This document shows positions 4,637 to 53,996 of a stretch of DNA of 64,000 nucleotides, piece by piece; positions within the stretch are counted from its first letter, which is position 1, and the number at the start of each line of letters is the position of its first letter. A program made the translations under genes and the position numbers. The notes beneath the pieces are model-generated. The model was not told the origin of the DNA. It saw only the letters and a program-made list of their open reading frames with translations, and made no database searches. This DNA is from Clostridia bacterium (GTDB lineage Bacteria; Bacillota; Clostridia; Christensenellales; UBA1242): contig JAFVWN010000025.1 in assembly GCA_017501645.1 (NCBI GenBank), positions 438 through 64,437 of the forward strand, given 5' to 3'.

Positions 4637-7336
4637 ATGATGAAAGCAAAAGATAATAAAATCTTATATTCAGTCATAACTGCAATTGTAATTGTGGTTA
4701 TTTTCGCCTTTGTTTTTGGGCTATTGTTTGTGAAAGATAAAAATAATATTTATATAACGCTATACTCACCTATTGGAAACACAAAACAGGTTATTAAAAC
4801 TTCATCAGGTAGTGAAATTGATAATATGCTTGAGCCTGTTGATGTTGAGGGTTATGAATTTATTGGTTGGTTCTATGATGATGAGTTAACAACTAAAGTT
4901 GAGAAAGGAACAGTTTTTAATAGTAGTAGAATTTTAAAAGCTGGTTACAGTAAAGTTATTAACAAGTCATTAACTCAAGACATAAGTTACAAAGATATTA
5001 CTAATCAAAAATTCTTAACAATAAAAACTTTCGATGGCGTTACCTTAACAAAAGCAGAATTAAAAACTATTCTTCAAAAAGGAGTTAGATATCTTAATCT
5101 TTCAAACGCAGATTTAGAGAAAAAAGTTCTTGACAATGAAATCTTTTTTGGGGAAACAACAATTAAGGAAGTTATCCTTCCAAGGAATGTTGTAAAAATT
5201 GAGAACTATGCGTTTAAAAATTGTTATAACTTAAAGTATGTTAAATTAGGTAACCAAACAATAACTTTAGGAAACAATACTTTTTATAATTGTAAAAATC
5301 TTGAAACATTAGATAATTTAGAAGTTGTTCAAAATTTAGGTCAATCTGTTTTTGAAGGTTGTGATAGTTTGAAAACTTTAAATTTAGGCAAAAATTTAAA
5401 AACAATTGAGCCTAAAGCTTTTTATGGATTGCAACTTAATAACATAACAATAGAAAATGAAAATCCAAACTTTAGAATTACCGGCAATGCTTTATATTCT
5501 TACGATTATCTCAATTTGATATATGTTCCATCAAACTATTCAGGAAGTTTAATTATAAATGAACAAACTCAAAAGGTTTGTGATTTTGCTTTGTATGGAA
5601 CTAAGTTTTTAACAAGTGTAACATTCCCTAATTCTCTTAGTTATATTGGGGATTCGGCGTTTAAAGACTGTAAAAATCTTGAGAAAGTTATATTTAATAG
5701 TGCAAAAAGTTATAAAATCTCAAACTATGCATTTAGTGGTTGTGAAAAGATTAAGCAAATTCAATTTGCAACCGGGCTTGAAAGTATTGGGAAAGAATCT
5801 TTTAGAGATTGTAAAAACATAGAAAATATTGTGTTTAATATATCGACAGCTACAAGTGTGTCAAATATAAATTACATTGGTAATGGAGCTTTTAAAAATT
5901 GTAAAAGCTTAGAATATGTTGTTATTCCTGAAAGTGTTGTTTTTGTAGGTGATGAATTATTTTACGGTTGTTCAAATCTTGAAGGTATAGAACTCTCTTC
6001 AAAAATCACAGAGATTCCAGAAAAAATGTTTTATGAAAATTCTGCTCTTGTTAAAGTTGAGACGGGTAATATTAAAAATATTAATAATTATGCATTTGCT
6101 GAATGTTTAAAACTTACAGATATTGAATCTTTGTTTACAGCAGAAAATATTGGTGTAGGCGCTTTTAAAAATTGTGTTAATTTAAAAACCGTATTGTTTA
6201 ATAATGTTAAAAATATTGGTGATGATTGTTTTGTTAATTGTAAAAGTCTCACTAATGTTTCTTTTGATAATGTAGTAAATTTTGGAGAAAATAGTTTTGC
6301 TTACTGTGAATCGTTAAAAAACTTTAACATTGGTAATAATGTTGAATCTATAAAAGACAGTACTTTTTATTATTGCAAAAACATTGAAAATTATAATTGT
6401 TTAGGGAATAACTATTATGTTTCTATTGAAGGTGTTTTATATGATGTAGATAAAAAAATAATAGTTGCCTATCCTCAAAATAAAAAATATGTAAACTTTA
6501 CAATTAATTCAACTGTTGAGAAAATATTAGATAAAGGTTTATACTTAAATCAGTACTTGTCTAATATTGATGTTGCTGATGGCAATTTGTATTTTTCTAG
6601 TGTTGACGGGATTTTGTTTGATTATAACAAAACAACTCTTTTAAGGTATCCCTGTGGAAAAACACAAACTGAGGTTGTTATTGATTATGATGTAGAAATC
6701 ATTGCTGAATACGCTTTTGCCTTTAATAAACACATTCAAACATTAAAAATTCCTTCAACTGTAAAAGTAATAAATAATAATGCGTTATTTGGTTTAACAT
6801 TTATTGAAACTATAGAAGTTCCATTCGTTGGAAAAACTGTTAGTGAGAATAAATTTATTGGTTATTTTTTTGGGGCAAACAGTTTTGTTTCAAACCACAA
6901 CTATACTCCAGAAACTTTAAAAAATGTTATTGTAACAAATGATACTATGGTTGCAGAATATTGTTTTTATGATGCAACTTCAGTAGAATATGTAGAGTTT
7001 AATAAAGATGTTTACATTGTTGAAAAGTATGCTTTTTATGGTGCTAAATCATTAAAAGAAATATATTTCAACGGAGCAATTAATTCTATAAAAGCAAAAG
7101 CTATATACAATTTGCCAAATTTAAAAACTTTAACTTTTGGTTTTGATAGTTTATTAGTTCTTGACAATAATGCTATCGGTGAATTAACTTATATTATCAA
7201 AGTTTATATTCATAATAAAAATCAAAATGTCCCTCAGGATTTTAGAGGATTTTTAATTTCAAAGTTCTCTAGTGTTTATAGTAAAGCTGGAGATTGGCAA
7301 TGGCAATTTAAAAATAATGTTAAAAATATTTTGTAA
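4637..7336 (+). CDS. BspA-type leucine-rich-repeat surface protein with N-terminal membrane anchor and one B-repeat module
   Basis: 899 aa. N-terminal hydrophobic segment ILYSVITAIVIVVIFAFVFGLLFV. One B-repeat-like module (VEGYEFIGWFYDDELTT...LKAGY). Then many repeats of the type I-x-x-x-AF-x-x-C-x-x-L-x-x-V-x-(IL)P (e.g. IENYAFKNCYNLKYVKLG, IGDSAFKDCKNLEKVIF). Confidence 0.8.
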   Translation: MMKAKDNKILYSVITAIVIVVIFAFVFGLLFVKDKNNIYITLYSPIGNTKQVIKTSSGSEIDNMLEPVDVEGYEFIGWFYDDELTTKVEKGTVFNSSRILKAGYSKVINKSLTQDISYKDITNQKFLTIKTFDGVTLTKAELKTILQKGVRYLNLSNADLEKKVLDNEIFFGETTIKEVILPRNVVKIENYAFKNCYNLKYVKLGNQTITLGNNTFYNCKNLETLDNLEVVQNLGQSVFEGCDSLKTLNLGKNLKTIEPKAFYGLQLNNITIENENPNFRITGNALYSYDYLNLIYVPSNYSGSLIINEQTQKVCDFALYGTKFLTSVTFPNSLSYIGDSAFKDCKNLEKVIFNSAKSYKISNYAFSGCEKIKQIQFATGLESIGKESFRDCKNIENIVFNISTATSVSNINYIGNGAFKNCKSLEYVVIPESVVFVGDELFYGCSNLEGIELSSKITEIPEKMFYENSALVKVETGNIKNINNYAFAECLKLTDIESLFTAENIGVGAFKNCVNLKTVLFNNVKNIGDDCFVNCKSLTNVSFDNVVNFGENSFAYCESLKNFNIGNNVESIKDSTFYYCKNIENYNCLGNNYYVSIEGVLYDVDKKIIVAYPQNKKYVNFTINSTVEKILDKGLYLNQYLSNIDVADGNLYFSSVDGILFDYNKTTLLRYPCGKTQTEVVIDYDVEIIAEYAFAFNKHIQTLKIPSTVKVINNNALFGLTFIETIEVPFVGKTVSENKFIGYFFGANSFVSNHNYTPETLKNVIVTNDTMVAEYCFYDATSVEYVEFNKDVYIVEKYAFYGAKSLKEIYFNGAINSIKAKAIYNLPNLKTLTFGFDSLLVLDNNAIGELTYIIKVYIHNKNQNVPQDFRGFLISKFSSVYSKAGDWQWQFKNNVKNIL

Positions 7337-44145: not shown

Positions 44146-44180
44146 TCTTGTAAAACTTGCAAAATTTGTTTAGTAATAAA

Positions 44181-44209
44181 AGAGACGGTCAAAAGCCGTC
44201 TCTTTTTTG
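44181..44209 (+). terminator. Intrinsic terminator of the giant gene
   Basis: AGAGACGG (44181-44188), loop TCAAAAG, CCGTCTCT (44196-44203), then T-run. It lies 36 nt after the stop. Confidence 0.85.
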
Positions 44210-44376
44210 TTGTAAAATTTAAGAATTTTGTTTTAAATTATAAAAACGATTGGGGAAAATTCGTTGCAAGGGTGGGGAAACAAATAAAACATAAAAAACA
44301 GTTTATTAGTTTAGTTGGTTTTTTGTTGAGAGAACTTCACTTTTTGGGTTGCAAAGGTTAAAAATCAAAAGAATAC

Positions 44377-44405
44377 TTTACATTTTATTGTGTGGGTGCT
44401 AAAAT
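44377..44405 (+). promoter_or_regulatory. Sigma-A-type promoter of leuS (extended -10)
   Basis: TTTACA (44377-44382), 17-nt spacer, TGcTAAAAT (44397-44405). Confidence 0.55.
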
Positions 44406-44456
44406 AAAAGAAAATAGTTGATAAATCTATTAATAAATACAAAGAGGCTGAAATTT

Positions 44457-46871
44457 ATGCGTGATTATAAACATATAGAAATTGAAAATAAATGGAAAAA
44501 ATATTGGCAAGACAATCAAACTTTTAAAACTGATGTTTGGGATTTTTCTAAGCCAAAATTTTATGCTCTAGATATGTTCCCATATCCATCTGGTTCAAAC
44601 CTTCATGCAGGGCACCCAGTTGGATATACAGCAACTGATATTGTTGCGAGAATGAAAAGAATGCAAGGTTATAATGTTTTGCACCCAATGGGATTTGACT
44701 CTTTTGGTCTTCCAGCTGAGCAATATGCAGTTGATACAGGAAACCACCCAGACGGATTTACTCAAAAGAATGTAAAAATCATTTCTCGTCAATTGTTTGA
44801 CCTTGGTTTCTCTTATGATTGGGAGAGGGAATTTTGCACAAGTGACCCAAGTTATTATAAGTGGACTCAATGGATTTTCAAAAAGCTTTATAATGATGGG
44901 CTTGCTAGATGTGTAGAAATGCCTGTAAACTGGTGTGAAGGTCTTGGTTGCGTTCTTGCAAATGATGAAATTATTGACGGTAAAAGTGAAAGAGGTGGAT
45001 TCCCTGTTGTTAGAAAGAATATGAAACAGTGGATAATTGATACTCCTAAGTTTGCAGATAGACTTCTTGAAGGGTTAAATGAAATTGATTGGCCAGAGTC
45101 TACAAAAACAATGCAAAGAAACTGGATTGGTAAGTCTACTGGTGTTGAAGTTGACTTTGATTTGGTTGGTGGTGGCTCTTTCTCTATTTATACAACTTGT
45201 ATTGAAACAATTTATGGTATTACATTTATGGTTATGGCGCCAGAAAGCAAGCTTGTAGACGAATTAAAACCAAGGATTAAAAACTGGCAAGAAGTTGAAG
45301 AATATCGTAAAGAAACAGCAAAATTAAGCGAATTTGACCGTACCGAGCTTAACAAAGGCAAGACTGGTGTTAAACTTGATGGAGTTTTTGCTATAAACCC
45401 AGTAAACGGGAGAGAAGTTCCTGTATTTATTGGCGATTTTGTACTTGCAAGTTATGGTACTGGTGCAGTTATGGCTGTTCCGTCTCACGATCAAAGAGAT
45501 TTTGAGTATGCAATTGTTCATAACATTCCAATGATTCAAGTTATTGATGGTGCAGATGTTAGTAAGAAAGCATTTGAAAAGCAAGATTACTTAGGTAAAG
45601 GTTGTAAACTTCTTAACAGTGAAGAGTTTACAGGTCTTACTGTTGAAGAGGCAAAAGAAGCAATAACTGAAAAACTTGTAAAAATGGGAAGGGGCAGAAA
45701 GAAAAACAACTATAAACTTCGTGAGTGGATTTTTGCTCGTCAAAGATATTGGGGTGAACCTATTCCTGTTGTTCATTTTGAAGATGGTACAACAAAAGCC
45801 CTTGAAGATAAAGATTTACCACTTATTCTTCCTGTTCTTGACGATTATAAACCTGCAAAAGACGGAAACAGTCCTCTTGCGAAAGCTACTGACTGGGTAA
45901 ATGTTGTTGTTGATGGCAAAAAGGCAAAAAGAGAAACAAGCACAATGCCGGGAAGTGCTGGTTCAAGCTGGTATTTCTTAAGATATATTGACCCTAAGAA
46001 TGACAATGAGTTCGCAAATCAAGAACTTTTGAAACACTGGATGCCTGTAGACCTTTATGTTGGTGGTCCAGAGCACGCAGTTGGACACCTATTATATTCT
46101 CGTGTATGGAACAATTATTTGTTTGATAAAGGACTTGTTCCAGTAAAAGAACCATTTAAAAAACTTGTACACCAAGGTATGTTGCTTGGTGCTAACGGTA
46201 TAAAGATGGGTAAGAGATATCCTAAGTATGTTGTTGGAACTGACGAAACTGTTCAAAAGTTCGGTGCAGATAGCTTAAGACTTTATGAAATGTTTATGAG
46301 TCCTCTTGAAGAGGCTAAACTTTGGAGTGATAGCGGTATTGTTGCTGCAAGAAAGTTCCTTGATAGAATTTATCGTATCTATCAAGAAAAGAATATTACT
46401 GAAGAAAATTCAGGAGAACTTAAGACTATTTATAACCAAACAGTTAAAAAGGTTACTGAAGATTATGAAACTCTAAACTTTAACACTGCAATTTCTCAAA
46501 TGATGATATTCATTAATGCTGTTGCTAAAGTTAATGATTTCCCAAGAGAATATGCTGAAGGTTTTGTGAAATTATTAAACCCAATTTGTCCATTTATTAC
46601 AGAAGAGTTGTGGGAAGAGCTTGGTCATAATAATACTGTTTCTTATGAATCTTGGCCAACTTATGACGCAAAAGCTTTAGTTCAAGATGAAATTGATTTA
46701 CCTGTTCAAATTCTTGGAAAAATGAGAGGCACAATCAAGGTTAATGTAAAAGCTTCACAGGATGAAGTTGTAAAATTGGCTATTGAAAATGCTGAAATAG
46801 CTAAATTTGTGACAGGAGATATCAAAAAAGTCATTTATGTTCCTGGAAGAATTTTAAACTTAATAGTATAA
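44457..46871 (+). CDS. leuS: Leucine--tRNA ligase
   Basis: MRDYKHIEIENKWKKYW..., HIGH-region LHAGHPVGY, KMSKS-region KMGKR, and a CP1 editing domain. The ORF track starts at TTG 44418. The ATG at 44457 has SD AAGAGG 9 nt upstream. Confidence 0.95.
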   Translation: MRDYKHIEIENKWKKYWQDNQTFKTDVWDFSKPKFYALDMFPYPSGSNLHAGHPVGYTATDIVARMKRMQGYNVLHPMGFDSFGLPAEQYAVDTGNHPDGFTQKNVKIISRQLFDLGFSYDWEREFCTSDPSYYKWTQWIFKKLYNDGLARCVEMPVNWCEGLGCVLANDEIIDGKSERGGFPVVRKNMKQWIIDTPKFADRLLEGLNEIDWPESTKTMQRNWIGKSTGVEVDFDLVGGGSFSIYTTCIETIYGITFMVMAPESKLVDELKPRIKNWQEVEEYRKETAKLSEFDRTELNKGKTGVKLDGVFAINPVNGREVPVFIGDFVLASYGTGAVMAVPSHDQRDFEYAIVHNIPMIQVIDGADVSKKAFEKQDYLGKGCKLLNSEEFTGLTVEEAKEAITEKLVKMGRGRKKNNYKLREWIFARQRYWGEPIPVVHFEDGTTKALEDKDLPLILPVLDDYKPAKDGNSPLAKATDWVNVVVDGKKAKRETSTMPGSAGSSWYFLRYIDPKNDNEFANQELLKHWMPVDLYVGGPEHAVGHLLYSRVWNNYLFDKGLVPVKEPFKKLVHQGMLLGANGIKMGKRYPKYVVGTDETVQKFGADSLRLYEMFMSPLEEAKLWSDSGIVAARKFLDRIYRIYQEKNITEENSGELKTIYNQTVKKVTEDYETLNFNTAISQMMIFINAVAKVNDFPREYAEGFVKLLNPICPFITEELWEELGHNNTVSYESWPTYDAKALVQDEIDLPVQILGKMRGTIKVNVKASQDEVVKLAIENAEIAKFVTGDIKKVIYVPGRILNLIV

Positions 46872-46889: not shown

Positions 46890-47495
46890 ATGCAAAAAGC
46901 AAAAAAATTATTATTTAGTGCAAGTATTTTAGAGTTAATGCTTGCTGTAGTGCTCTTAATTTTTGACGGTTTCTATTCTGCAAACTGGTTATCTTCGCTA
47001 GAAGGTGACTTGACGGGAAGAATAGTAATCACTTGTGTACTATTTGTTTTGTCGGTTGCCTTCGCTGTTGATGGCGTTCTTGCTTTAAGGTATTCAAGAG
47101 CGAGTGATGAAACATTAAAAAAATGTCAAAAGGCAAGAGTTCTAATGGGGATTGCGTTTGTTGTGATCGCTATTACTGCATACATTTTATTGTGTGTAAT
47201 CGTAACAAAGAAGCAAGGTGCAGAAGTCTTTGTATTGGTTTTTAGTTTTTTTGTGTCTATAGCAGTGGCTGTTTTGAACATAAAAAGTGCTGTTGATATG
47301 AATAAACCAGAAGAACCAAAACAAATTGTAACTTCGCAAGTTGTTAAACCACAAGTTGTGTCCCCAAAACGAAATGATATTGACGGACTCATCCAAAGGC
47401 TTGATTCTCTTGCTGTTTTAAGAGAAAGAGGGCTTATAACAGAGGAAGAGTTTGAAAAGTTTAGAACGGAAGTTTTAAACAGCTATAAGGATTAA
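46890..47495 (+). CDS. Membrane protein with C-terminal SHOCT domain
   Basis: About four hydrophobic segments, then IDGLIQRLDSLAVLRERGLITEEEFEKFRTEVL (SHOCT-type short C-terminal domain). Confidence 0.65.
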   Translation: MQKAKKLLFSASILELMLAVVLLIFDGFYSANWLSSLEGDLTGRIVITCVLFVLSVAFAVDGVLALRYSRASDETLKKCQKARVLMGIAFVVIAITAYILLCVIVTKKQGAEVFVLVFSFFVSIAVAVLNIKSAVDMNKPEEPKQIVTSQVVKPQVVSPKRNDIDGLIQRLDSLAVLRERGLITEEEFEKFRTEVLNSYKD

Positions 47496-47518
47496 TTATT
47501 AAAAAGGAGAAATAAGTT

Positions 47519-48307
47519 ATGGAGAGAACCAAAAATAAATTTTATGTTGCAACATCTGTTTTAGAATTTGTATTTGCATCAATTTGTGTATTGTATTCAT
47601 TAATTTTAATTATAGGAATGGCAACAGGAACTCTTTCTGAAACAATAAAAACTGATTTACTAGCAGAGTATGGTAGTGCTACCCCAGAAATGCTTGAAGC
47701 TTTACAGATGGTAAACTCAATGATAATAACAATGATTGTGTTTATGGTTGGTTCATCTGCTGTTATGTATGTTTCTGGTGTATACTTCTTAAAATATTCA
47801 AATCTTACAGACCAAGAAGCTGATGAAAAGTGGGGAAAATGTCTAGGTTGGACTATTACTGCATATTTCTTTGGTGGCCTTTTACTTGGTGGTCTTGCAA
47901 CTGCAGGTTTGTGTGCTGTTCAAGCGAAACAAAGAGAAAGAGTTGTTGGTGGAACTGCTAATTGGACCACATCAACAGGAAAAACTGTTAATATGAGTAC
48001 TGGAGTTGTTGAACAAGAAGATGTTTTAGCACCTGAAAATCTTGAGAAGATAAGAGTTAGGCTTGAGAAATTAAAAGCACTAAAAGATACGGGAGCTATT
48101 AGTGAGGAAGAGTTTGAATCATTAAGAGCAAAGACAATGGCTGGTCTTACTCCTAAAAAAGAAGAGCCGAAGGTTAATCCAGAAGATGAAAAACTTGCAA
48201 GAATGACTGAAAGGCTTAATAAGTTAACAGCTCTTAAAGAGTCTGGTGCAATAAGCGAAGAAGAGTATGCTTCACTAAGAGAAAAAGTTATTAACGAAAC
48301 AAAATAA
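47519..48307 (+). CDS. Membrane protein with two C-terminal SHOCT domains
   Basis: Hydrophobic N-terminal half, then LEKLKALKDTGAISEEEFESLRAK and LNKLTALKESGAISEEEYASLREK. Confidence 0.65.
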   Translation: MERTKNKFYVATSVLEFVFASICVLYSLILIIGMATGTLSETIKTDLLAEYGSATPEMLEALQMVNSMIITMIVFMVGSSAVMYVSGVYFLKYSNLTDQEADEKWGKCLGWTITAYFFGGLLLGGLATAGLCAVQAKQRERVVGGTANWTTSTGKTVNMSTGVVEQEDVLAPENLEKIRVRLEKLKALKDTGAISEEEFESLRAKTMAGLTPKKEEPKVNPEDEKLARMTERLNKLTALKESGAISEEEYASLREKVINETK

Positions 48308-48317
48308 TAAAATAAAA

Positions 48318-48348
48318 AGACACTTCTATAAACGAAGTGCCTTTTTTA
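48318..48348. terminator. Bidirectional terminator between convergent genes
   Basis: AGACACTTC (48318-48326) pairs with GAAGTGCCT (48334-48342): 9 bp with one mismatch. T-run downstream and A-run upstream. Confidence 0.6.
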
Positions 48349-48349
48349 T

Positions 48350-48904
48350 TTATATACTTAATTGAAGTTTGTTTTTTAGAGGTGTTGATATAAACTCGAA
48401 ATATAGCTCAGTTATGCAATATGTGAAGCAGGGAACAAGACTGTCAAAAACAAGGTCAGCAGGGTCAACAAATCTTCCTGTTGGTAAAACCCCTTGAAGA
48501 AGTTCAATTATAATAGCGAATATTAATCCAATAAGAGCTGGGTTGTTTTTTAGTAATAGTTTATCTGTCTTGTCTATAAAGTGTTGTTTTGCAAAGCAGA
48601 TAACCCCAATAGGAATTGTGAGGGCAAAGTTAATAAAGAAATTATGAAAACTCATACCGTCTGCAAAATTAAACTCAAAGAAGCTGTGGTTTTGAGGGGG
48701 TTCTATGTATAAATGAGTGGTTGAAAGTCTGGCATTAAAGAGTGTTAAGAACAATGCTAAAACTAGAAATAGGGTTTGCCAAACATCAATTATAAAAAGT
48801 TTTGTGTATTTTTTTTGACTTTTTATATAGAATAATAATATAAGTGGTACAAAGGCGAAAAGCCCAATATATAAAGGAATAAACAGGTTTATGGATATTT
48901 TCAT
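48350..48904 (-). CDS. VanZ-like family membrane protein
   Basis: A multi-pass hydrophobic protein with ELLQGVLPTGRFVDPADLVFDSL, which resembles the VanZ-like core. The ATG at 48904 has GGAGG (48910-48914) 5 nt upstream. The ORF track starts at TTG 48916. Confidence 0.5.
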   Translation of the reverse strand: MKISINLFIPLYIGLFAFVPLILLFYIKSQKKYTKLFIIDVWQTLFLVLALFLTLFNARLSTTHLYIEPPQNHSFFEFNFADGMSFHNFFINFALTIPIGVICFAKQHFIDKTDKLLLKNNPALIGLIFAIIIELLQGVLPTGRFVDPADLVFDSLVPCFTYCITELYFEFISTPLKNKLQLSI

Positions 48905-48949
48905 TTGTGCCTCCAAGATATGGTCAAGAAAAAAGTAAGAAAATTATTC

Positions 48950-48978
48950 TTGACAAATTCGATTATCAATATTATAAT
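48950..48978 (+). promoter_or_regulatory. Consensus sigma-A promoter of the aspS-gatCAB leader
   Basis: TTGACA (48950-48955), 17-nt spacer, TATAAT (48973-48978). Confidence 0.7.
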
Positions 48979-49008
48979 ATGAATATCACGAAAAAGGAAA
49001 CAAAATCA

Positions 49009-49059
49009 ATGACATTTATTCAAATTAATAACAACAATAATAATCTTTTGAACACATAA
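49009..49059 (+). CDS. Candidate Asn-rich leader peptide MTFIQINNNNNNLLNT
   Basis: AAGGAAA (48994-49000) lies 8 nt before the ATG at 49009. The ORF has 16 codons, with six consecutive Asn codons at 49027-49044 plus one more, and ends at TAA 49057-49059. It lies between a promoter and a terminator. Confidence 0.5.
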   Translation: MTFIQINNNNNNLLNT

Positions 49060-49102
49060 AGTTATGGGTTGTTATTGTCATTGTAAAAAATAAAGTAAAT
49101 TC

Positions 49103-49141
49103 AAGAACTTTTTGGCAATCACCCAAAAAGTTCTTTTTTTT
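49103..49141 (+). terminator. Leader terminator (attenuator) upstream of aspS
   Basis: AAGAACTTTTTGG (49103-49115), loop CAATCAC, CCAAAAAGTTCTT (49123-49135): a 13-bp perfect stem followed by a T-run to 49141. It sits 40 nt upstream of the aspS ATG and inside the transcription unit. Confidence 0.8.
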
Positions 49142-49180
49142 GGAAAAAAATCAAAAAACAATTTTTAAGGAGATAAAATT

Positions 49181-50473
49181 ATGGAACAAAAAATTAAAGA
49201 TTTAAAAGTAGGAGAAGTTGAAGTCGAAGGGTGGCTTGATAGGGTTCGAGACCAAAAGAGTATGCTTTTCGTAATCATCAAAGACCGTTCAGGTAAATTA
49301 CAAATTACAGTGGAAAAAGAAAAGACGCCAGAAATAGCAAAAACATTAACTTCTTTAATGACTGACAGTTTTATTAGAGTAAAAGGTTTGCTTGTTGAGA
49401 GTCCTTGTGTTAAACTAGGTGGTGTGGAATTATATCCAACAGAAGTTGAAGTATTAAGTAGTGCAAAAGTAAGCCCAATAGGAGAGGAAAGTAGCATTGA
49501 CCAAAGACTTGACTATAGATGGATTGACCTTCGTGATTCTAAGAAAAGATTAATTTTCGAGGTGCAAACAATATTTGTCCACGCAATGAGAAAGTTTTTA
49601 ATGGAAAGAGATTTCATTGAGGTTCACTGTCCAACAATTTCTGGTCAAGAAAGTGAAAGTGGTGCAGGTGTTTTTGAAGTTAAGTATTTTGACCAAAAAG
49701 CATATTTAATTCAAAGCCCACAATTCTATAAACAAATGGCAATTGCAAGCGGATTTGAAAAAGTATTTATCGCAACTCCTATTTATAGAGCGGAAAAATC
49801 ATTTACAAAACAACACGCAACAGAATTTTCTGGTTTTGACCTTGAATTTTCTGGAGTTAAAGATGTTGAAGATGTAATGAAGATGGAAGAAGAGCTTATT
49901 GAGGCAGGCATTAGAGCTGTTAAAGAAAAACTTGGAGATAGAGTTAAAGCAGAACTCGGTGTAGATATTGTTGTTCCAAAACTTCCATTCCCAAGACTCA
50001 CAATGAAAGAGGTTTATGAAATTCTTGATGAAGAGTGTGATTATCCTCTTGATGAAGGTGATGACCTTGATAGAGAAGCTGAAAAACTTTTAACAGAGTA
50101 TATGCAAAAGAAGACGGGACATCAATTCTTCTTCGTAAAAGAATATCCAGCGGGGGTTAGACCTTTCTATTCAATGAAGAAAGAAGATGACCCAGAGTAT
50201 ACAAAAACTTATGACTTATATTTCAAAGATGTTGAGATTACAAGTGGTGCTCAAAGAGAACACAGAGCAGACATATTAGCAGAGCAAATTAGAGAAAAAG
50301 GAATTGACCCTAAAACTATGGAAGAGGGGTACATTGATTTCTTTAAATATGGATGCCCACCACACGGTGGTTTTGGTCTTGGTTTAGACAGAATTACAAT
50401 GCTACTTTTAGACCTTCCAACAATAAAAGAGGCTATGTTTGTATTCCGTGGCCCAGACAGAATTAAACCTTAG
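49181..50473 (+). CDS. aspS: Aspartate--tRNA ligase, short archaeal/type-2 form (probably non-discriminating)
   Basis: 430 aa (the bacterial-type enzyme with its insertion domain is about 590 aa). N-terminal OB fold, class II motifs YRAEKSFT..HATEF and GGFGLGLDRITMLL. Directly upstream of gatCAB. Confidence 0.9.
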   Translation: MEQKIKDLKVGEVEVEGWLDRVRDQKSMLFVIIKDRSGKLQITVEKEKTPEIAKTLTSLMTDSFIRVKGLLVESPCVKLGGVELYPTEVEVLSSAKVSPIGEESSIDQRLDYRWIDLRDSKKRLIFEVQTIFVHAMRKFLMERDFIEVHCPTISGQESESGAGVFEVKYFDQKAYLIQSPQFYKQMAIASGFEKVFIATPIYRAEKSFTKQHATEFSGFDLEFSGVKDVEDVMKMEEELIEAGIRAVKEKLGDRVKAELGVDIVVPKLPFPRLTMKEVYEILDEECDYPLDEGDDLDREAEKLLTEYMQKKTGHQFFFVKEYPAGVRPFYSMKKEDDPEYTKTYDLYFKDVEITSGAQREHRADILAEQIREKGIDPKTMEEGYIDFFKYGCPPHGGFGLGLDRITMLLLDLPTIKEAMFVFRGPDRIKP

Positions 50474-50484
50474 GAGAGAAAAGA

Positions 50485-50772
50485 ATGAAAACTGTAACAA
50501 GTGAAGACATTAAACACTTAGCTTCATTATCAGCACTAGATTTTGATGAGGAAAAAATTGAAGAATTTAAAGGCGAGTTTGAAAGTATTTTGGGTTTTGT
50601 TGACCAAATAGCAAATGCAAAAATTGAGGGCGTTGATACTTTTAATAGAAGCGTTCCCGTTGCACAGCTTAGAGAAGACGAAGCAAAAGAAAGTGCTCCT
50701 GTTGAAGTACTTTTGAAAAATGCTCCAAAACAAAGAAAAGGGTATTTCAATGTACCAAAGGTGGTAGACTAA
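50485..50772 (+). CDS. gatC: Asp/Glu-tRNA amidotransferase subunit C
   Basis: 95 aa; IKHLASLSALDFDEEKIEEFKGEFESILGFVDQI is typical of GatC. Confidence 0.9.
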   Translation: MKTVTSEDIKHLASLSALDFDEEKIEEFKGEFESILGFVDQIANAKIEGVDTFNRSVPVAQLREDEAKESAPVEVLLKNAPKQRKGYFNVPKVVD

Positions 50773-52193
50773 TGGATATAAAATCACTTAGTATAGAAGA
50801 ACTTGTAAAAAAGATAAAATCAAAAGAATTTTCTGCTAAAGAAGTTACAAAATATTATCTTGCAAACATTGAGAAATATAAAGGTAAAAATGCAGTTTTA
50901 GAGGTTTTTGAAGATGCTGTTGAAATAGCGGAAGATATCGATAGAAAAATCGCTTCTGGGGCGGATTTGGGCTTGCTTGCGGGTGTTCCTGTTATCATTA
51001 AAGACAATATGCTTTACGAGGGTAAAAAGTGTACTTGTGCATCTAAATTTTTGAAAGATTATGTGTCACAATACACTTCTACTGCTGTTCAAAAACTTAT
51101 TGACCAAGATGCTGTGATTATTGGTAGAGCAAATATGGACGAGTTTGCTATGGGTGGTTCTTGTGAACACTCTGCTTTTGGTGCTTGTAAGAATGCCTAT
51201 GATGACACTAGAGTTTCTGGTGGTTCAAGTGGCGGAAGTGCTGTTGCGGTTGCTCTTGATATGTGTGCGTTTGCTCTTGGTAGTGATACTGGTGGGTCTA
51301 TTCGTCAACCTTCAAGCTTTAACGGGATGGTTGGACTTAAGCCTACTTACGGAAGAGTTTCAAGATATGGCTTAGTTGCGTTTGCTTCAAGCCTTGACCA
51401 AATTGGACCAATCACCAAAAGTGTTGAAGATGCAAAACTTGTTTTAAAAGTTATTGCAGGTAAAGACATCAATGACCAAACAACAGCGGATGAGCCTTTA
51501 GTGGACTCTAAACCAGTTAATTTAAAAGGGTTAAAGTTTGGTGTTATTAGTCAAGTAGATAAAGTTGCTAAGAACAGTAAATATTATGCAATATATAAAG
51601 ATATTGAAAAGAAACTTGCTCTTGCAGGTGCAGATATTGTTTCTGTGGATATTCCAGAATATGAGTTGTCATTATCTTCATATTATGTTATTCAACCAGC
51701 AGAAGCAACATCTAACCTTGGAAGATTTGATGGTGTAAAATACACAACAAGAGCAGGTGATGTAAGCGGAATTAATGACCTTTATAAAAAGTCAAGAACT
51801 GAAGGTTTTGGTGATGAAGTAAAAAGAAGAATTATGCTAGGAAACTTTGCTCTTTCTAGCGGTTACTATGATGCTTATTACAAAAACGCAAAAAGGGTTC
51901 AAAAATTATTAAAAACAAAGTTTGAAGAAGCATTTAAGAAAGTTGATGCAATAATAATGCCTACAACTTATGGTGAGGCTTTTGAAATTGGTTCAAAAAC
52001 AAAAGACCCTGTAAGTATGTATGCGGAAGATATGTTTACAATTGTTGCAAACCTTGCTGGAGTTCCTGCAGTTAGTGTTCCTTGCGGAAAGGGAGAAAGT
52101 GGACTTCCATTAGGATTGCAGGTTGTTGGCAAGCATTTTGACGATTTAAGACTTTTAGAAATCACAAAAGAAATTCAAAAGGAGATAAAATAA
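50772..52193 (+). CDS. gatA: Asp/Glu-tRNA amidotransferase subunit A
   Basis: Amidase signature GGSSGGSAVAVA...GSDTGGSIRQP. The start overlaps the gatC stop (TAATG). Confidence 0.95.
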   Translation: MDIKSLSIEELVKKIKSKEFSAKEVTKYYLANIEKYKGKNAVLEVFEDAVEIAEDIDRKIASGADLGLLAGVPVIIKDNMLYEGKKCTCASKFLKDYVSQYTSTAVQKLIDQDAVIIGRANMDEFAMGGSCEHSAFGACKNAYDDTRVSGGSSGGSAVAVALDMCAFALGSDTGGSIRQPSSFNGMVGLKPTYGRVSRYGLVAFASSLDQIGPITKSVEDAKLVLKVIAGKDINDQTTADEPLVDSKPVNLKGLKFGVISQVDKVAKNSKYYAIYKDIEKKLALAGADIVSVDIPEYELSLSSYYVIQPAEATSNLGRFDGVKYTTRAGDVSGINDLYKKSRTEGFGDEVKRRIMLGNFALSSGYYDAYYKNAKRVQKLLKTKFEEAFKKVDAIIMPTTYGEAFEIGSKTKDPVSMYAEDMFTIVANLAGVPAVSVPCGKGESGLPLGLQVVGKHFDDLRLLEITKEIQKEIK

Positions 52194-53629
52194 TGTTTGA
52201 GGATTATGACATTGTTATTGGTTTAGAGGTGCACGCAGAATTAAAGACAAAAACTAAAGTTTTTTGTTCTTGTAAAAATGAATTTGGAAGCGAGCCAAAC
52301 TCTAACTGTTGTCCTGTTTGTGTTGGGCTTCCGGGGGCGTTGCCAGTTCTTAACAAAAAAGCAGTTGAACTCACAATAAAAGCTGGTCATACTATTGGTT
52401 CAAGCATTTCTCCAATTGCTGTTTTTGAAAGAAAAAACTACTTCTATCCAGACCTTGCTAAAGCATACCAAATAAGTCAGCTTGAAAGACCTATTTGCGT
52501 TGGGGGAAGCATTACTCTTGATAGCGGGAAAGTGATAAGAATTAACAGAATTCACCTTGAAGAAGATGCTGGTAAACTTGTGCATAAAAACGACAAGATT
52601 GGTACTCTTATTGACTATAACAGAGGTGGTGTTCCATTGATTGAAATGGTAACAGAACCTGACATTTCAAGTGCTGAAGAGGCTGTTGAATTTTTAATGA
52701 AATACAGAAGCAACCTTGTTTTTGGTGATATTGCAGATTGTAAAATGGAGCAAGGTGGAATGCGTTGTGATGTTAACCTTTCTGTTAAGAAAAAAGGCTC
52801 AAGTGTTTTAGGAACTAGAACAGAAATGAAGAACCTAAACTCTTTCAAGATGGTTCAAAGAGCTATTGAGTTTGAAGCAAGAAGACAAGTTGAAGAAATA
52901 GAAGCTGGAAAAACTATTGTTCAGGAAACTAGAAAATGGGACGACAACAGAGGAAGAAGCTTTGCTATGCGTTCTAAAGAAGAGGCTCAAGACTATAGAT
53001 ATTTTCCAGACCCAGATATTTTGTCTGTAGAAATTAGTGAAGATGTTGTTAACAGCATCAAAAAGACACTTCCTGAACTTTCTCATCAAAAGAAACTTAG
53101 ATATATTGAAGAACTTGGACTCCCTGCGTATGATGCAAAGATATTGACAAGCGAGAAATATATTTGTGAGTATTTTGAAAAAGTTCTTGATAAGGTTAAA
53201 AACCCAAAAATTGTTTCTAACTGGGTTATGACAGAGGTTCTTGCAAAATGTAAAGAACAAGCTGTTGAAAGTTTAGAAGAAGTTATTTCTGTTAAAAACT
53301 TGGCATATATTATCAATGCGGTTCAAGATAAAGAAATTACAAGGATAAACGGTAAAGAACTTTTTGAAGATGCCTGTTACAGTGAGTTTGATGCAGAGGA
53401 GGAAGCAAAATCTAGGGGAATGGTTGTAAAAATGAGCGACCAAGACCTTGAAAAGTTTATTGGTGAAGTAATGGAAGAAAACCGCTCTGCTGTTGCAGAT
53501 TACAAAGACAACCCTGTAAAAGTTGAAAACTTTTTTATTGGAAGCCTTATGAAGAAAACTCAAGGAAAGGCAAATGTTGAGAAAGCAAGACCTATTATTC
53601 ACGAACTTTTGGAAAGGTCTGTTAGGTAA
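52193..53629 (+). CDS. gatB: Asp/Glu-tRNA amidotransferase subunit B
   Basis: IGLEVHAEL..KVFC.C, NRIHLEEDAGK and a C-terminal YqeY-like tail. The start overlaps the gatA stop (TAATG). Confidence 0.95.
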   Translation: MFEDYDIVIGLEVHAELKTKTKVFCSCKNEFGSEPNSNCCPVCVGLPGALPVLNKKAVELTIKAGHTIGSSISPIAVFERKNYFYPDLAKAYQISQLERPICVGGSITLDSGKVIRINRIHLEEDAGKLVHKNDKIGTLIDYNRGGVPLIEMVTEPDISSAEEAVEFLMKYRSNLVFGDIADCKMEQGGMRCDVNLSVKKKGSSVLGTRTEMKNLNSFKMVQRAIEFEARRQVEEIEAGKTIVQETRKWDDNRGRSFAMRSKEEAQDYRYFPDPDILSVEISEDVVNSIKKTLPELSHQKKLRYIEELGLPAYDAKILTSEKYICEYFEKVLDKVKNPKIVSNWVMTEVLAKCKEQAVESLEEVISVKNLAYIINAVQDKEITRINGKELFEDACYSEFDAEEEAKSRGMVVKMSDQDLEKFIGEVMEENRSAVADYKDNPVKVENFFIGSLMKKTQGKANVEKARPIIHELLERSVR

Positions 53630-53721
53630 TTAAAACTTTTTTTAAAAAACTTTATTAAAATAGTTTGATTTTTTCATAAAATATTATATACTTGAATAAG
53701 AATATAATGGAGGTAGGAACT

Positions 53722-53946
53722 ATGGCAAAATCTAGATCAGATTATTTTGGACTTGGATACCTTGTAAGTGTTATTCTTGCAATTATTCCAGTAACATCTT
53801 GGATTTGTGGTTTTGTTACAAGATTCATGGAAGGTAAAATCGTTGCTGGTCTTATTAGACTTATTTTTGGTTTCACAATCGTTTGGATTATTGACCTTAT
53901 CATGATGATTTTCAGCAAGCACATTTTAAGACTATTGAACATTTAG
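53722..53946 (+). CDS. Small (74 aa) two-pass membrane protein, unknown function
   Basis: The ATG at 53722 has GGAGG 8 nt upstream (the ORF track starts at TTG 53692). Two hydrophobic segments. Confidence 0.5.
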   Translation: MAKSRSDYFGLGYLVSVILAIIPVTSWICGFVTRFMEGKIVAGLIRLIFGFTIVWIIDLIMMIFSKHILRLLNI

Positions 53947-53963
53947 TCCCTAAAAAACAAAAA

Positions 53964-53996
53964 AGAGTGCTCAACTTTTGTTGAGTGCTTTTTTTC
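53964..53996 (+). terminator. Intrinsic terminator ending the aspS-gat transcription unit
   Basis: GAGTGCTCAAC / GTTGAGTGCTT stem (CTCAAC/GTTGAG core plus wobble pairs), TTTT loop, then a T-run. Confidence 0.6.

Follow-up and report, generated by a model that had tools for sequence, protein, structure and literature searches.

Among the leader-peptide attenuators of the enterobacteria are trpL, hisL, pheL, leuL, thrL and ilvL, and pheM-pheST of Escherichia coli represents an aminoacyl-tRNA synthetase operon under the same type of control. Here we analyse a 64-kb stretch of DNA (hereafter, the window; 34% G+C) from an uncultured Clostridia lineage (GenBank assembly GCA_017501645.1, contig JAFVWN010000025.1, positions 438 to 64,437 of the forward strand). 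In it, a leader of approximately 157 nucleotides (nt), containing a short open reading frame (ORF) rich in Asn codons, precedes an operon for the tRNA-dependent synthesis of Asn, which encodes a non-discriminating aspartyl-tRNA synthetase (ND-AspRS, the product of aspS) and GatCAB. The evidence, which is computational throughout, makes it likely that this leader is a ribosome-mediated attenuator that responds to Asn and controls ND-aspS-gatCAB.

Judged by target, the closest classical system is pheM-pheST, a synthetase target being common to both. The resemblance to the classical attenuators extends to the design: a short ORF carries tandem cognate codons, the RNA can adopt mutually exclusive folds and the position of the ribosome decides between them. 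Unlike the classical attenuators, the window leader is keyed to Asn (with or without Asp), its target is the tRNA-dependent Asn-synthesis machinery, and its predicted antiterminator pairs with the apex and the top of the 3' arm of the terminator instead of the whole 5' arm. It further differs from the enterobacterial attenuators in its clostridial host, and no similarity in sequence or to an Rfam model connects them.

Leader peptides have also been predicted in Firmicutes. His leader-peptide attenuators were predicted in Bacilli upstream of a hisS paralogue and of hisZ (PMC2965389), and others were predicted upstream of the his operons of the Bacillus cereus group, of five Eubacteriales species (mostly Peptostreptococcaceae) and of Erysipelotrichales (PMC9413887). 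Like the leader described here, these stand where relatives have T-boxes, are predictions of comparative analysis and, in one case, precede a synthetase paralogue. Unlike it, they employ His rather than Asn or Asp codons, precede different genes, are unrelated in sequence and have an independent origin.

A third point of comparison is the T-box itself. The tRNA-dependent amidation operon of Clostridium acetobutylicum has T-box control, including an NT-box (Saad et al. 2012, 2013, as cited in PMC4206432 and PMC4574755), and the NT-box is referred to in PMC4574755 as a dual-specificity element. The leader described here shares with the Asn T-box and the NT-box the operon, the position, an intrinsic terminator as the output and the charging of tRNA(Asn) as the variable; in common with the dual-specificity NT-box, leaders in which Asn and Asp codons are mixed may read two tRNAs. 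The means of sensing differ. In the window leader a ribosome would decode codons, whereas T-box RNA binds the uncharged tRNA directly, and neither Stem I, a specifier loop nor the T-box sequence is present. A T-box would thereby read only the acylation of the tRNA 3' end and a ribosome would read what EF-Tu delivers.

No description of an Asn-keyed leader-peptide attenuator was found in the full-text literature, a coverage from which most subscription journals are absent, nor was one found of a leader-peptide attenuator acting on tRNA-dependent amino-acid synthesis (ND-AspRS plus GatCAB). We therefore put forward, tentatively, that the window contains the first Asn-specific leader-peptide attenuator, which may have arisen in a single clade of uncultured gut Clostridia by displacing an ancestral T-box(Asn) ahead of ND-aspS-gatCAB. 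What is new is the amino acid sensed, the type of target and the means by which the terminator would be disarmed.

The leader has a compact organization. A sigma-70-type promoter on the plus strand (48950-48978; TTGACA at 48950-48955, a 17-nt spacer and TATAAT at 48973-48978) matches the consensus at 12 of 12 positions and is the sole such match within 48300-50000; transcription would start at about 48985. A Shine-Dalgarno (SD)-like AAGGAAA (48994-49000) precedes a leader ORF of 16 codons plus stop, MTFIQINNNNNNLLNT, which runs from the ATG at 49009 to the TAA at 49057-49059. Six Asn codons stand in tandem at 49027-49044 (AAT AAC AAC AAT AAT AAT), a seventh (AAC) follows at 49051-49053 and the ORF is devoid of Asp codons. 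Directly after the stop codon lies a segment that we call R2 (UGGGUUGUUAUUGUCAUUG, 49065-49084), recognized by its conservation and its alternative pairing partners. The intrinsic terminator, or attenuator (49103-49141, also kept in relatives), consists of a 13-bp stem with four G-C pairs (AAGAACUUUUUGG/CCAAAAAGUUCUU, 49103-49115/49123-49135), a 7-nt loop (CAAUCAC, 49116-49122) and a U-tract that extends to 49141, the hairpin energy being -13.8 kcal/mol. R2 positions 49065-49080 can pair with the apex of this hairpin (49113-49125), which takes in the loop and the 3 nt that flank it in either arm. The SD of aspS, AAGGAG, follows at 49167-49172. A preliminary description of this DNA had placed the promoter, the SD-like motif, the ORF, the Asn codons, the terminator and the aspS start at the same coordinates, and all are found there, as are the two complementarities that it quoted (49055-49063 with 49106-49114, and 49027-49035 with 49068-49076). 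The leader thus combines the constituents of an attenuator: a short ORF with a start codon and ribosome-binding site, in-frame tandem codons, a terminator, a predicted antiterminator that excludes the terminator, and an anti-antiterminator that overlaps the regulatory codons.

The Asn run far exceeds what chance would produce. It is the only stretch of at least five consecutive AAY codons on either strand of the window, whose first-order Markov versions (200 trials) gave 0.045 runs of at least five and 0.000 of at least six. An ATG-initiated ORF of at most 30 codons with at least six Asn in seven appeared in 0 of 20,000 Markov versions of the intergenic spacer, and the leader RNA is more stably folded than its own shuffles (z = -4.0). 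These figures answer the caution, raised in the preliminary description, that runs of this kind can appear by chance in AT-rich DNA. They also bear on the reading that there is no regulation at all, the ORF being an accident of base composition and the hairpin either a terminator that is leaky or constitutive or a 5' structure with a stabilising effect. The composition of the genome and of the spacer carrying the leader (78% A+T) would invite such accidents. A mixed run, NDNNND, does occur out of frame inside a SHOCT-domain gene (47719-47736, plus strand) and, as a chance control for N/D runs, demonstrates that mixed RAY runs of six can arise by chance. An absence of regulation is nonetheless extremely unlikely, for the composition-matched spacers did not yield such an ORF, the architecture is kept in 11 loci whose spacers are otherwise unalignable, and the terminator loop is complementary to R2 in 10 of the 11 leaders. 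Moreover, the gene upstream of the leader (VanZ-like, 48350-48916, minus strand) is divergent, so that the hairpin at 49103-49135 terminates no upstream gene. Neither elsewhere in the 64 kb nor in the sequences flanking the related loci was a second N/D-rich leader found.

The family was assembled from a search for AspRS relatives, whose loci came from a genome collection at species level or were located through exact look-up of the protein. Comparison of related aspS-gatCAB leaders, a check proposed in the preliminary description, uncovered an in-frame run of Asn or Asn/Asp codons in ten further distinct loci, whose AspRS proteins are 67-95% identical to that of the window and whose hosts are gut Clostridia; the 11 leaders together represent about six or seven lineages. 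These are L081 (AspRS 95% identical to that of the window; leader peptide MAFIRINNNNNNSLNT), L082 (80%; MIFKTNNNNNNSL), L084 (79%; MMHVNNNDNNDF), L214 (75%; MRFSLNNGNNNAILNT), L086 (74%; MITLINNNDNNNDNTI), L087 (75%; MTTLRNNNDNNNDDTI), L089 (73%; MITLVNNNDNNNNNAI), L001 (76%; MFTLVNNNDNNNDNTI), L002 (73%; MIFEINNDNNNLFNTL) and L003 (67%; MTTLFCVINNNNNNNTATRLV). All share a layout of promoter, ATG-initiated mini-ORF, in-frame N or N/D run, stop codon, U/G-rich segment, terminator and aspS-gatCAB. TTGACA-N16-18-TATAAT or a near match precedes each of the ten orthologous leaders, whose ORFs span 12-21 codons with 5-9 N/D codons apiece. An in-frame ATG and a terminator are present in 11 of 11 leaders, the terminator stems differing in sequence, and a GGA/GGAG SD motif lies upstream of the ATG in 10 of 11. 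The ATG-to-run distances, 12, 15, 18 and 24 nt, are all multiples of 3, and the reading frame has thus been kept through every change in length. Within the run, codons vary between AAU and AAC or between A and G at the first position, and several relatives have one to three Asp codons (GAC/GAU) mixed into the Asn run.

A metagenome scan with the pattern AATAAYRAYAAYAAY-N10-40-TGGGTTKT added no member to the family, since none of the 120 contigs among the matches listed encodes AspRS or GatCAB. Twelve of these JGI contigs (L091-L210) were read by eye, and every one of the 12 contains a repeat element, (AAT)n-ACTGCAATTGGGTTGTCACC, in which (AAT)n is followed by ACTGCAATTGGGTTGTCACCCGGTGGCAGTGGTTATTTTACATG. 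It resembles an interspersed repeat and may come from the genome of a eukaryotic host.

The preliminary description had remarked that a leader peptide would be unusual where Firmicutes normally employ T-boxes, and such a replacement does appear to have taken place, as sister lineages have the same operon behind a T-box with an Asn specifier. Four loci (L088, L090, L211 and L008), with AspRS proteins 69-74% identical to that of the window, combine aspS-gatCAB with T-boxes that score 116-143 bits against Rfam, the specifier being AAC (Asn) in each. In three of them the specifier lies in the context GAAC (L090, approximately 2311-2322; L211, approximately 2296-2306; L008, approximately 5700-5711), where GAA (Glu) and AAC (Asn) overlap, an arrangement that recalls the two-codon NT-box described for C. 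acetobutylicum; the context in L088 is AAAC. Another locus, L212, has aspS alone and a T-box of 151 bits, with a GAC (Asp) specifier by Rfam alignment. GAC specifiers were also recognized, by pattern match only, in L004, L005 and L007 (61% relatives) and in several relatives at 51-55%. L004 gives no T-box match at the Rfam threshold, although the T-box core motif is present upstream. Loci of the L004 type mostly have a second class-IIb synthetase gene immediately after aspS and none has gatCAB; in L004 the second gene is asnS (615 bits against a cut-off of 414). The pair of aspS and a second class-IIb synthetase gene occupies 5998-8634 of L004 and recurs in L005-L007, L009, L010, L012, L016, L018 and L020. 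The specifier is GAC in 6 of the 10 loci with this layout, namely those in which the pattern match found one.

Operon content and signal thus run in parallel. All 11 leader-peptide loci and all four loci with an AAC T-box have aspS-gatCAB, and the T-box loci with a GAC-type specifier are without gatCAB. On these sequences the signal appears to follow the product of the operon, aspS-gatCAB being keyed to Asn, and aspS alone or aspS-asnS to Asp. A neighbour-joining tree of AspRS groups the leader-peptide loci into a single clade whose sister is the clade with AAC T-boxes; L213, which has aspS only and no leader, is nested within the leader-peptide clade, and L003 is basal. Most simply read, a leader peptide would have taken over from a T-box(Asn) in a single lineage.

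With close relatives carrying T-boxes on the same operon, one might suspect that the window leader is a degenerate T-box or another known riboswitch. A T-box at this site was named in the preliminary description as one of the finds that would overturn its model, and neither Rfam search nor motif detects one in the window. In the 64 kb, neither the T-box nor another Rfam family scores at or above its gathering cut-off (Rfam 15, 4227 models), and a relaxed search of 48850-49250 at E<=10 returned no T-box, the best chance match being PyrR (23.7 bits against 54, E = 0.38). The same search recovers the T-boxes of L088, L090, L211, L212 and L008 at 116-151 bits. Seven orthologous leader-peptide loci likewise match no Rfam family, the T-box motif GGUGGNACC / AGGGUGGNACCGCG, Stem I and a specifier loop are absent from the window leader, and a leader of this length is too short for Stem I plus an antiterminator. 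The probability that we assign to a degenerate T-box or known riboswitch is close to nil.

The feature that ties the leader-peptide family together at the RNA level is R2. Nine of the 11 leaders have its core, UGGGUU(G/U)UUAUUG(U/C)C, L002 has a close variant, GGGUUUUGUUGUC, and L003 has nothing equivalent; in every R2-bearing leader the stop codon of the ORF falls 0-13 nt before it. R2 has three alternative partners: the Asn codons and start codon (a pairing that we call P1, the predicted anti-antiterminator), the end of the ORF, and the terminator apex. P1 in the window is composed of 49028-49035/49068-49075 and 49008-49014/49076-49083, the strand 49008-49014 including the start codon; the complementarity of the Asn-codon string 49027-49035 to 49068-49076, pointed out in the preliminary description, is therefore real, and it is also conserved among relatives. 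Ten of 11 leaders have a minimum-free-energy fold that consists of P1, a long imperfect hairpin, and the terminator. A small hairpin can also close over the stop codon (49051-49058/49063-49070), and three of its pairs have changed on both sides within the family. Applied to a plain MAFFT alignment, RNAalifold recovered only this stop-codon hairpin, because differences in ORF and loop length between subgroups shift P1, the antiterminator and the terminator out of register; per-sequence folds anchored on R2 were used in its place.

The conserved candidate for the antiterminator is the pairing of R2 with the terminator apex, which across the family comprises the last 2-3 nt of the 5' arm, the entire loop and the first 3-4 nt of the 3' arm. 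In the window, 49065-49080 pairs with 49113-49125 in a duplex of -11.9 kcal/mol, equalled by 5 of 500 shuffles. The corresponding duplexes range from -10 to -22 kcal/mol in 10 of 11 leaders, and their scores are matched by 0-8 of 500 shuffles in eight of the ten and by 15 and 40 in the other two. When R2 was scored against the apexes of seven terminators from T-box leaders, the average was about -2 kcal/mol, indicating that the loop complementarity is specific to the leader-peptide family. When a stalled ribosome was mimicked by masking the ORF and no more than the top 4 nt of the 3' arm were left exposed, 10 of 10 leaders had the antiterminator as their minimum-free-energy structure (-9.8 to -21.7 kcal/mol). 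Sequence changes agree with these pairings. At position 6 of R2, the window and L081 have a G that finds a C in the ORF and in the loop alike; the other leaders have a U, which pairs with an A in the loop and, in the ORF, either with an A or not at all; a change from AAU to AAC in the ORF covaries with one from CAU to CGU in R2. This covariation is limited but consistent. We regard the exact R2/apex geometry as more likely than not, with less assurance than the attenuator itself.

The preliminary description had proposed a different antiterminator within the same type of attenuator, in which 49055-49063, a segment spanning the stop codon, pairs with 49106-49114 in the 5' arm of the terminator. 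In the window alone this proposal has some appeal, with 8 of 9 positions paired, an energy of -5.7 kcal/mol and only 5 of 300 shuffles as good. The pairing is unconserved. In L081, a G-to-A change removes its only G-C pair and leaves -0.4 kcal/mol, and in the other eight leaders it amounts to 0 to -2.1 kcal/mol, like shuffles; even at its best it is weak next to the R2/apex duplexes. This geometry is thus very unlikely. Of the stalling model as first proposed, Asn-keyed leader-peptide attenuation is supported, and the role given to the stop-codon segment passes to the pairing of R2 with the apex. A pairing between the terminator 5' arm and the spacer that separates R2 from the terminator was considered as well and rejected, being unconserved and no better than that of 49055-49063.

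With an assumed footprint size, the predicted position of the ribosome can be set against the R2/apex geometry. For a ribosome stalled in the run, free RNA begins no more than 6 nt past the stop codon in 10 of 10 leaders, so that R2, or all but its first one to three nt, is exposed. For a ribosome that has reached the stop codon, masking is plausible on the same assumption in eight leaders, where 1-7 nt separate that codon from the GGG of R2, but not in L082 or L084.

Several observations weigh against an Asn-responsive attenuator built on R2. Two leaders, L082 and L084, have 11-14 nt between the stop codon and R2, and a terminating ribosome would not mask R2 there. Once the whole 3' arm is exposed, again with a masked ORF, the balance favours the terminator by 1-8 kcal/mol in 8 of 10 leaders. 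Since the terminator wins at equilibrium, the switch must be kinetic, as in other attenuators, and read-through would depend on a kinetic head start for the antiterminator. An antiterminator that attacks the apex and the 3' arm rather than the whole 5' arm is unusual, and the lower part of the terminator stem could in principle still form as a pseudoknot. The covariation comprises few events in a highly conserved R2 among 11 related sequences. L001 has its SD at an unusually long distance ahead of the ATG, and L002 has none. L003, finally, has another antiterminator: in this locus (5815-5949) the end of the ORF, CAAGGUUGGUGU, pairs with the 5' arm and loop of the terminator, ACAUCAGCCUUG, and the minimum-free-energy fold in the absence of a ribosome is the antiterminated form. 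As modelled, L003 would be closer to the classical design, with an antiterminator that is masked directly once a ribosome reaches the stop codon. In the L002 leader (5861-5931), the ATG is situated 6 nt past the TATAAT box, without an SD, and this leader may be translated from a leaderless mRNA.

The weak initiation signals of L001 and L002 would also suit an RNA-only or protein-dependent attenuator, in which some factor or ligand switches R2, the ORF is untranslated and the Asn codons are merely the complement of R2. The RAY triplets are indeed the exact complement of the U/G-rich R2, and the GAC of mixed runs (GGC in L214) is complementary to the GYC of R2, which leaves much of the tract constrained by structure alone. 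Against this reading, the ATG is in frame throughout, the four ATG-to-run lengths are all multiples of 3, the stop codon keeps its place just ahead of R2 and an SD is present in 10 of 11 leaders, including the distant one of L001. L003 keeps seven Asn codons despite an antiterminator of different sequence, the element replaced in the sister clades senses tRNA(Asn), and no known protein-binding or riboswitch family matches, PyrR again being the best and well short of its threshold. A switch independent of translation is accordingly unlikely, albeit the most credible of the alternatives to an Asn-responsive leader peptide.

From the leader elements and their conservation we infer that the ORF is translated, that ribosomes stall on it, that the folds compete kinetically and that the leader responds to Asn in vivo. 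The promoter, presumably strong and constitutive, would start the leader transcript near 48985, and a ribosome would load on the 16-codon ORF at 49009-49059. If Asn-tRNA(Asn) is plentiful, the ribosome would reach the stop codon and its leading edge would cover the G-rich 5' end of R2 (UGGG); after release of the ribosome, R2 would fold back on the Asn codons and start codon to form P1. In either the stop-masked or the P1 state, the terminator (49103-49135) would form and transcription would end at about 49141. If Asn-tRNA(Asn) is scarce, the ribosome would stall within 49027-49044, holding the 5' strand of P1 but stopping short of R2. Free R2 would then pair with the GG of the 5' arm as it emerges, next with the loop and lastly with the CCA of the 3' arm (49113-49125). 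As pairing with the GG and loop would begin before the 3' arm exists, the terminator stem could not nucleate and RNA polymerase would enter aspS-gatCAB. Where no translation takes place, P1 and the terminator would make up a default off state, L003 perhaps being an exception. The Asp codons of mixed runs may add sensing of Asp-tRNA(Asp), the other product of the enzyme; alternatively, their presence may reflect no more than the pairing of GAC, through its G and C, with the GYC of R2; in L214 the corresponding codon is GGC.

Downstream of the leader, NCBIfam models identify four genes on the plus strand and thereby corroborate the assignment of the operon, in the preliminary description, as an archaeal-type AspRS plus GatCAB. 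These are aspS, encoding an archaeal-type non-discriminating aspartate--tRNA(Asn) ligase of 430 amino acids (aa) (49181-50473; NF003483, 449 bits against a cut-off of 353), gatC (50485-50772; TIGR00135, 83 against 47), gatA (50772-52193; TIGR00132, 558 against 481) and gatB (52193-53629; NF004012, 592 against 338), separated by an 11-nt gap or joined by 1-nt overlaps. The AspRS is identical to MBR2909052.1, a protein from a metagenome-assembled genome labelled Clostridia bacterium. The first terminator-like hairpin 3' of gatB, at 53960-53995 on the plus strand, probably marks the end of the operon; between it and gatB lies an 84-aa ORF with a TTG start (53692-53946, plus strand) and no Pfam match.

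Two adjoining SHOCT-domain proteins (46890-48307, plus strand) are encoded, together with the VanZ-like protein, just upstream of the leader. L084 also has a VanZ-like gene divergently upstream, and local synteny is thus partly kept. The region 44146-46871 contains leuS (ATG at 44457), which, read by eye, has a plain promoter and an untranslated region of about 50 nt; neither a T-box nor a Leu-codon leader ORF was found in front of it. A single ORF of 11,019 aa extends over 11086-44145 (plus strand). Its first 500 aa match BspA-type leucine-rich repeats, a sample from its mid-section matches Listeria-Bacteroides (Flg_new / InlB B-repeat) domains, apparently repeated many times, and a terminator-like hairpin of its own was read by eye at its end (approximately 44181-44208); the product is probably a giant surface adhesin. 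No tRNA genes were found in the whole 64 kb. Germination genes downstream in the window indicate that the host is a spore former.

For annotation pipelines, these leaders constitute a new class in regions that Rfam at present leaves blank. They also provide a natural comparison, as the same operon stands under a T-box(Asn) in one lineage and under an Asn-codon mini-ORF in its sister, and this pair of clades is a good case in which to ask why and how one RNA sensor replaces another. If the proposed mechanism is correct, the sensor would report on Asn-tRNA(Asn), the finished product, and not simply on whether the 3' end of the tRNA is acylated. The operon would consequently still be switched on when only mischarged Asp-tRNA(Asn) accumulates, a condition that a T-box would not be expected to distinguish, and mixed Asn/Asp runs would let one leader report on both products of ND-AspRS.

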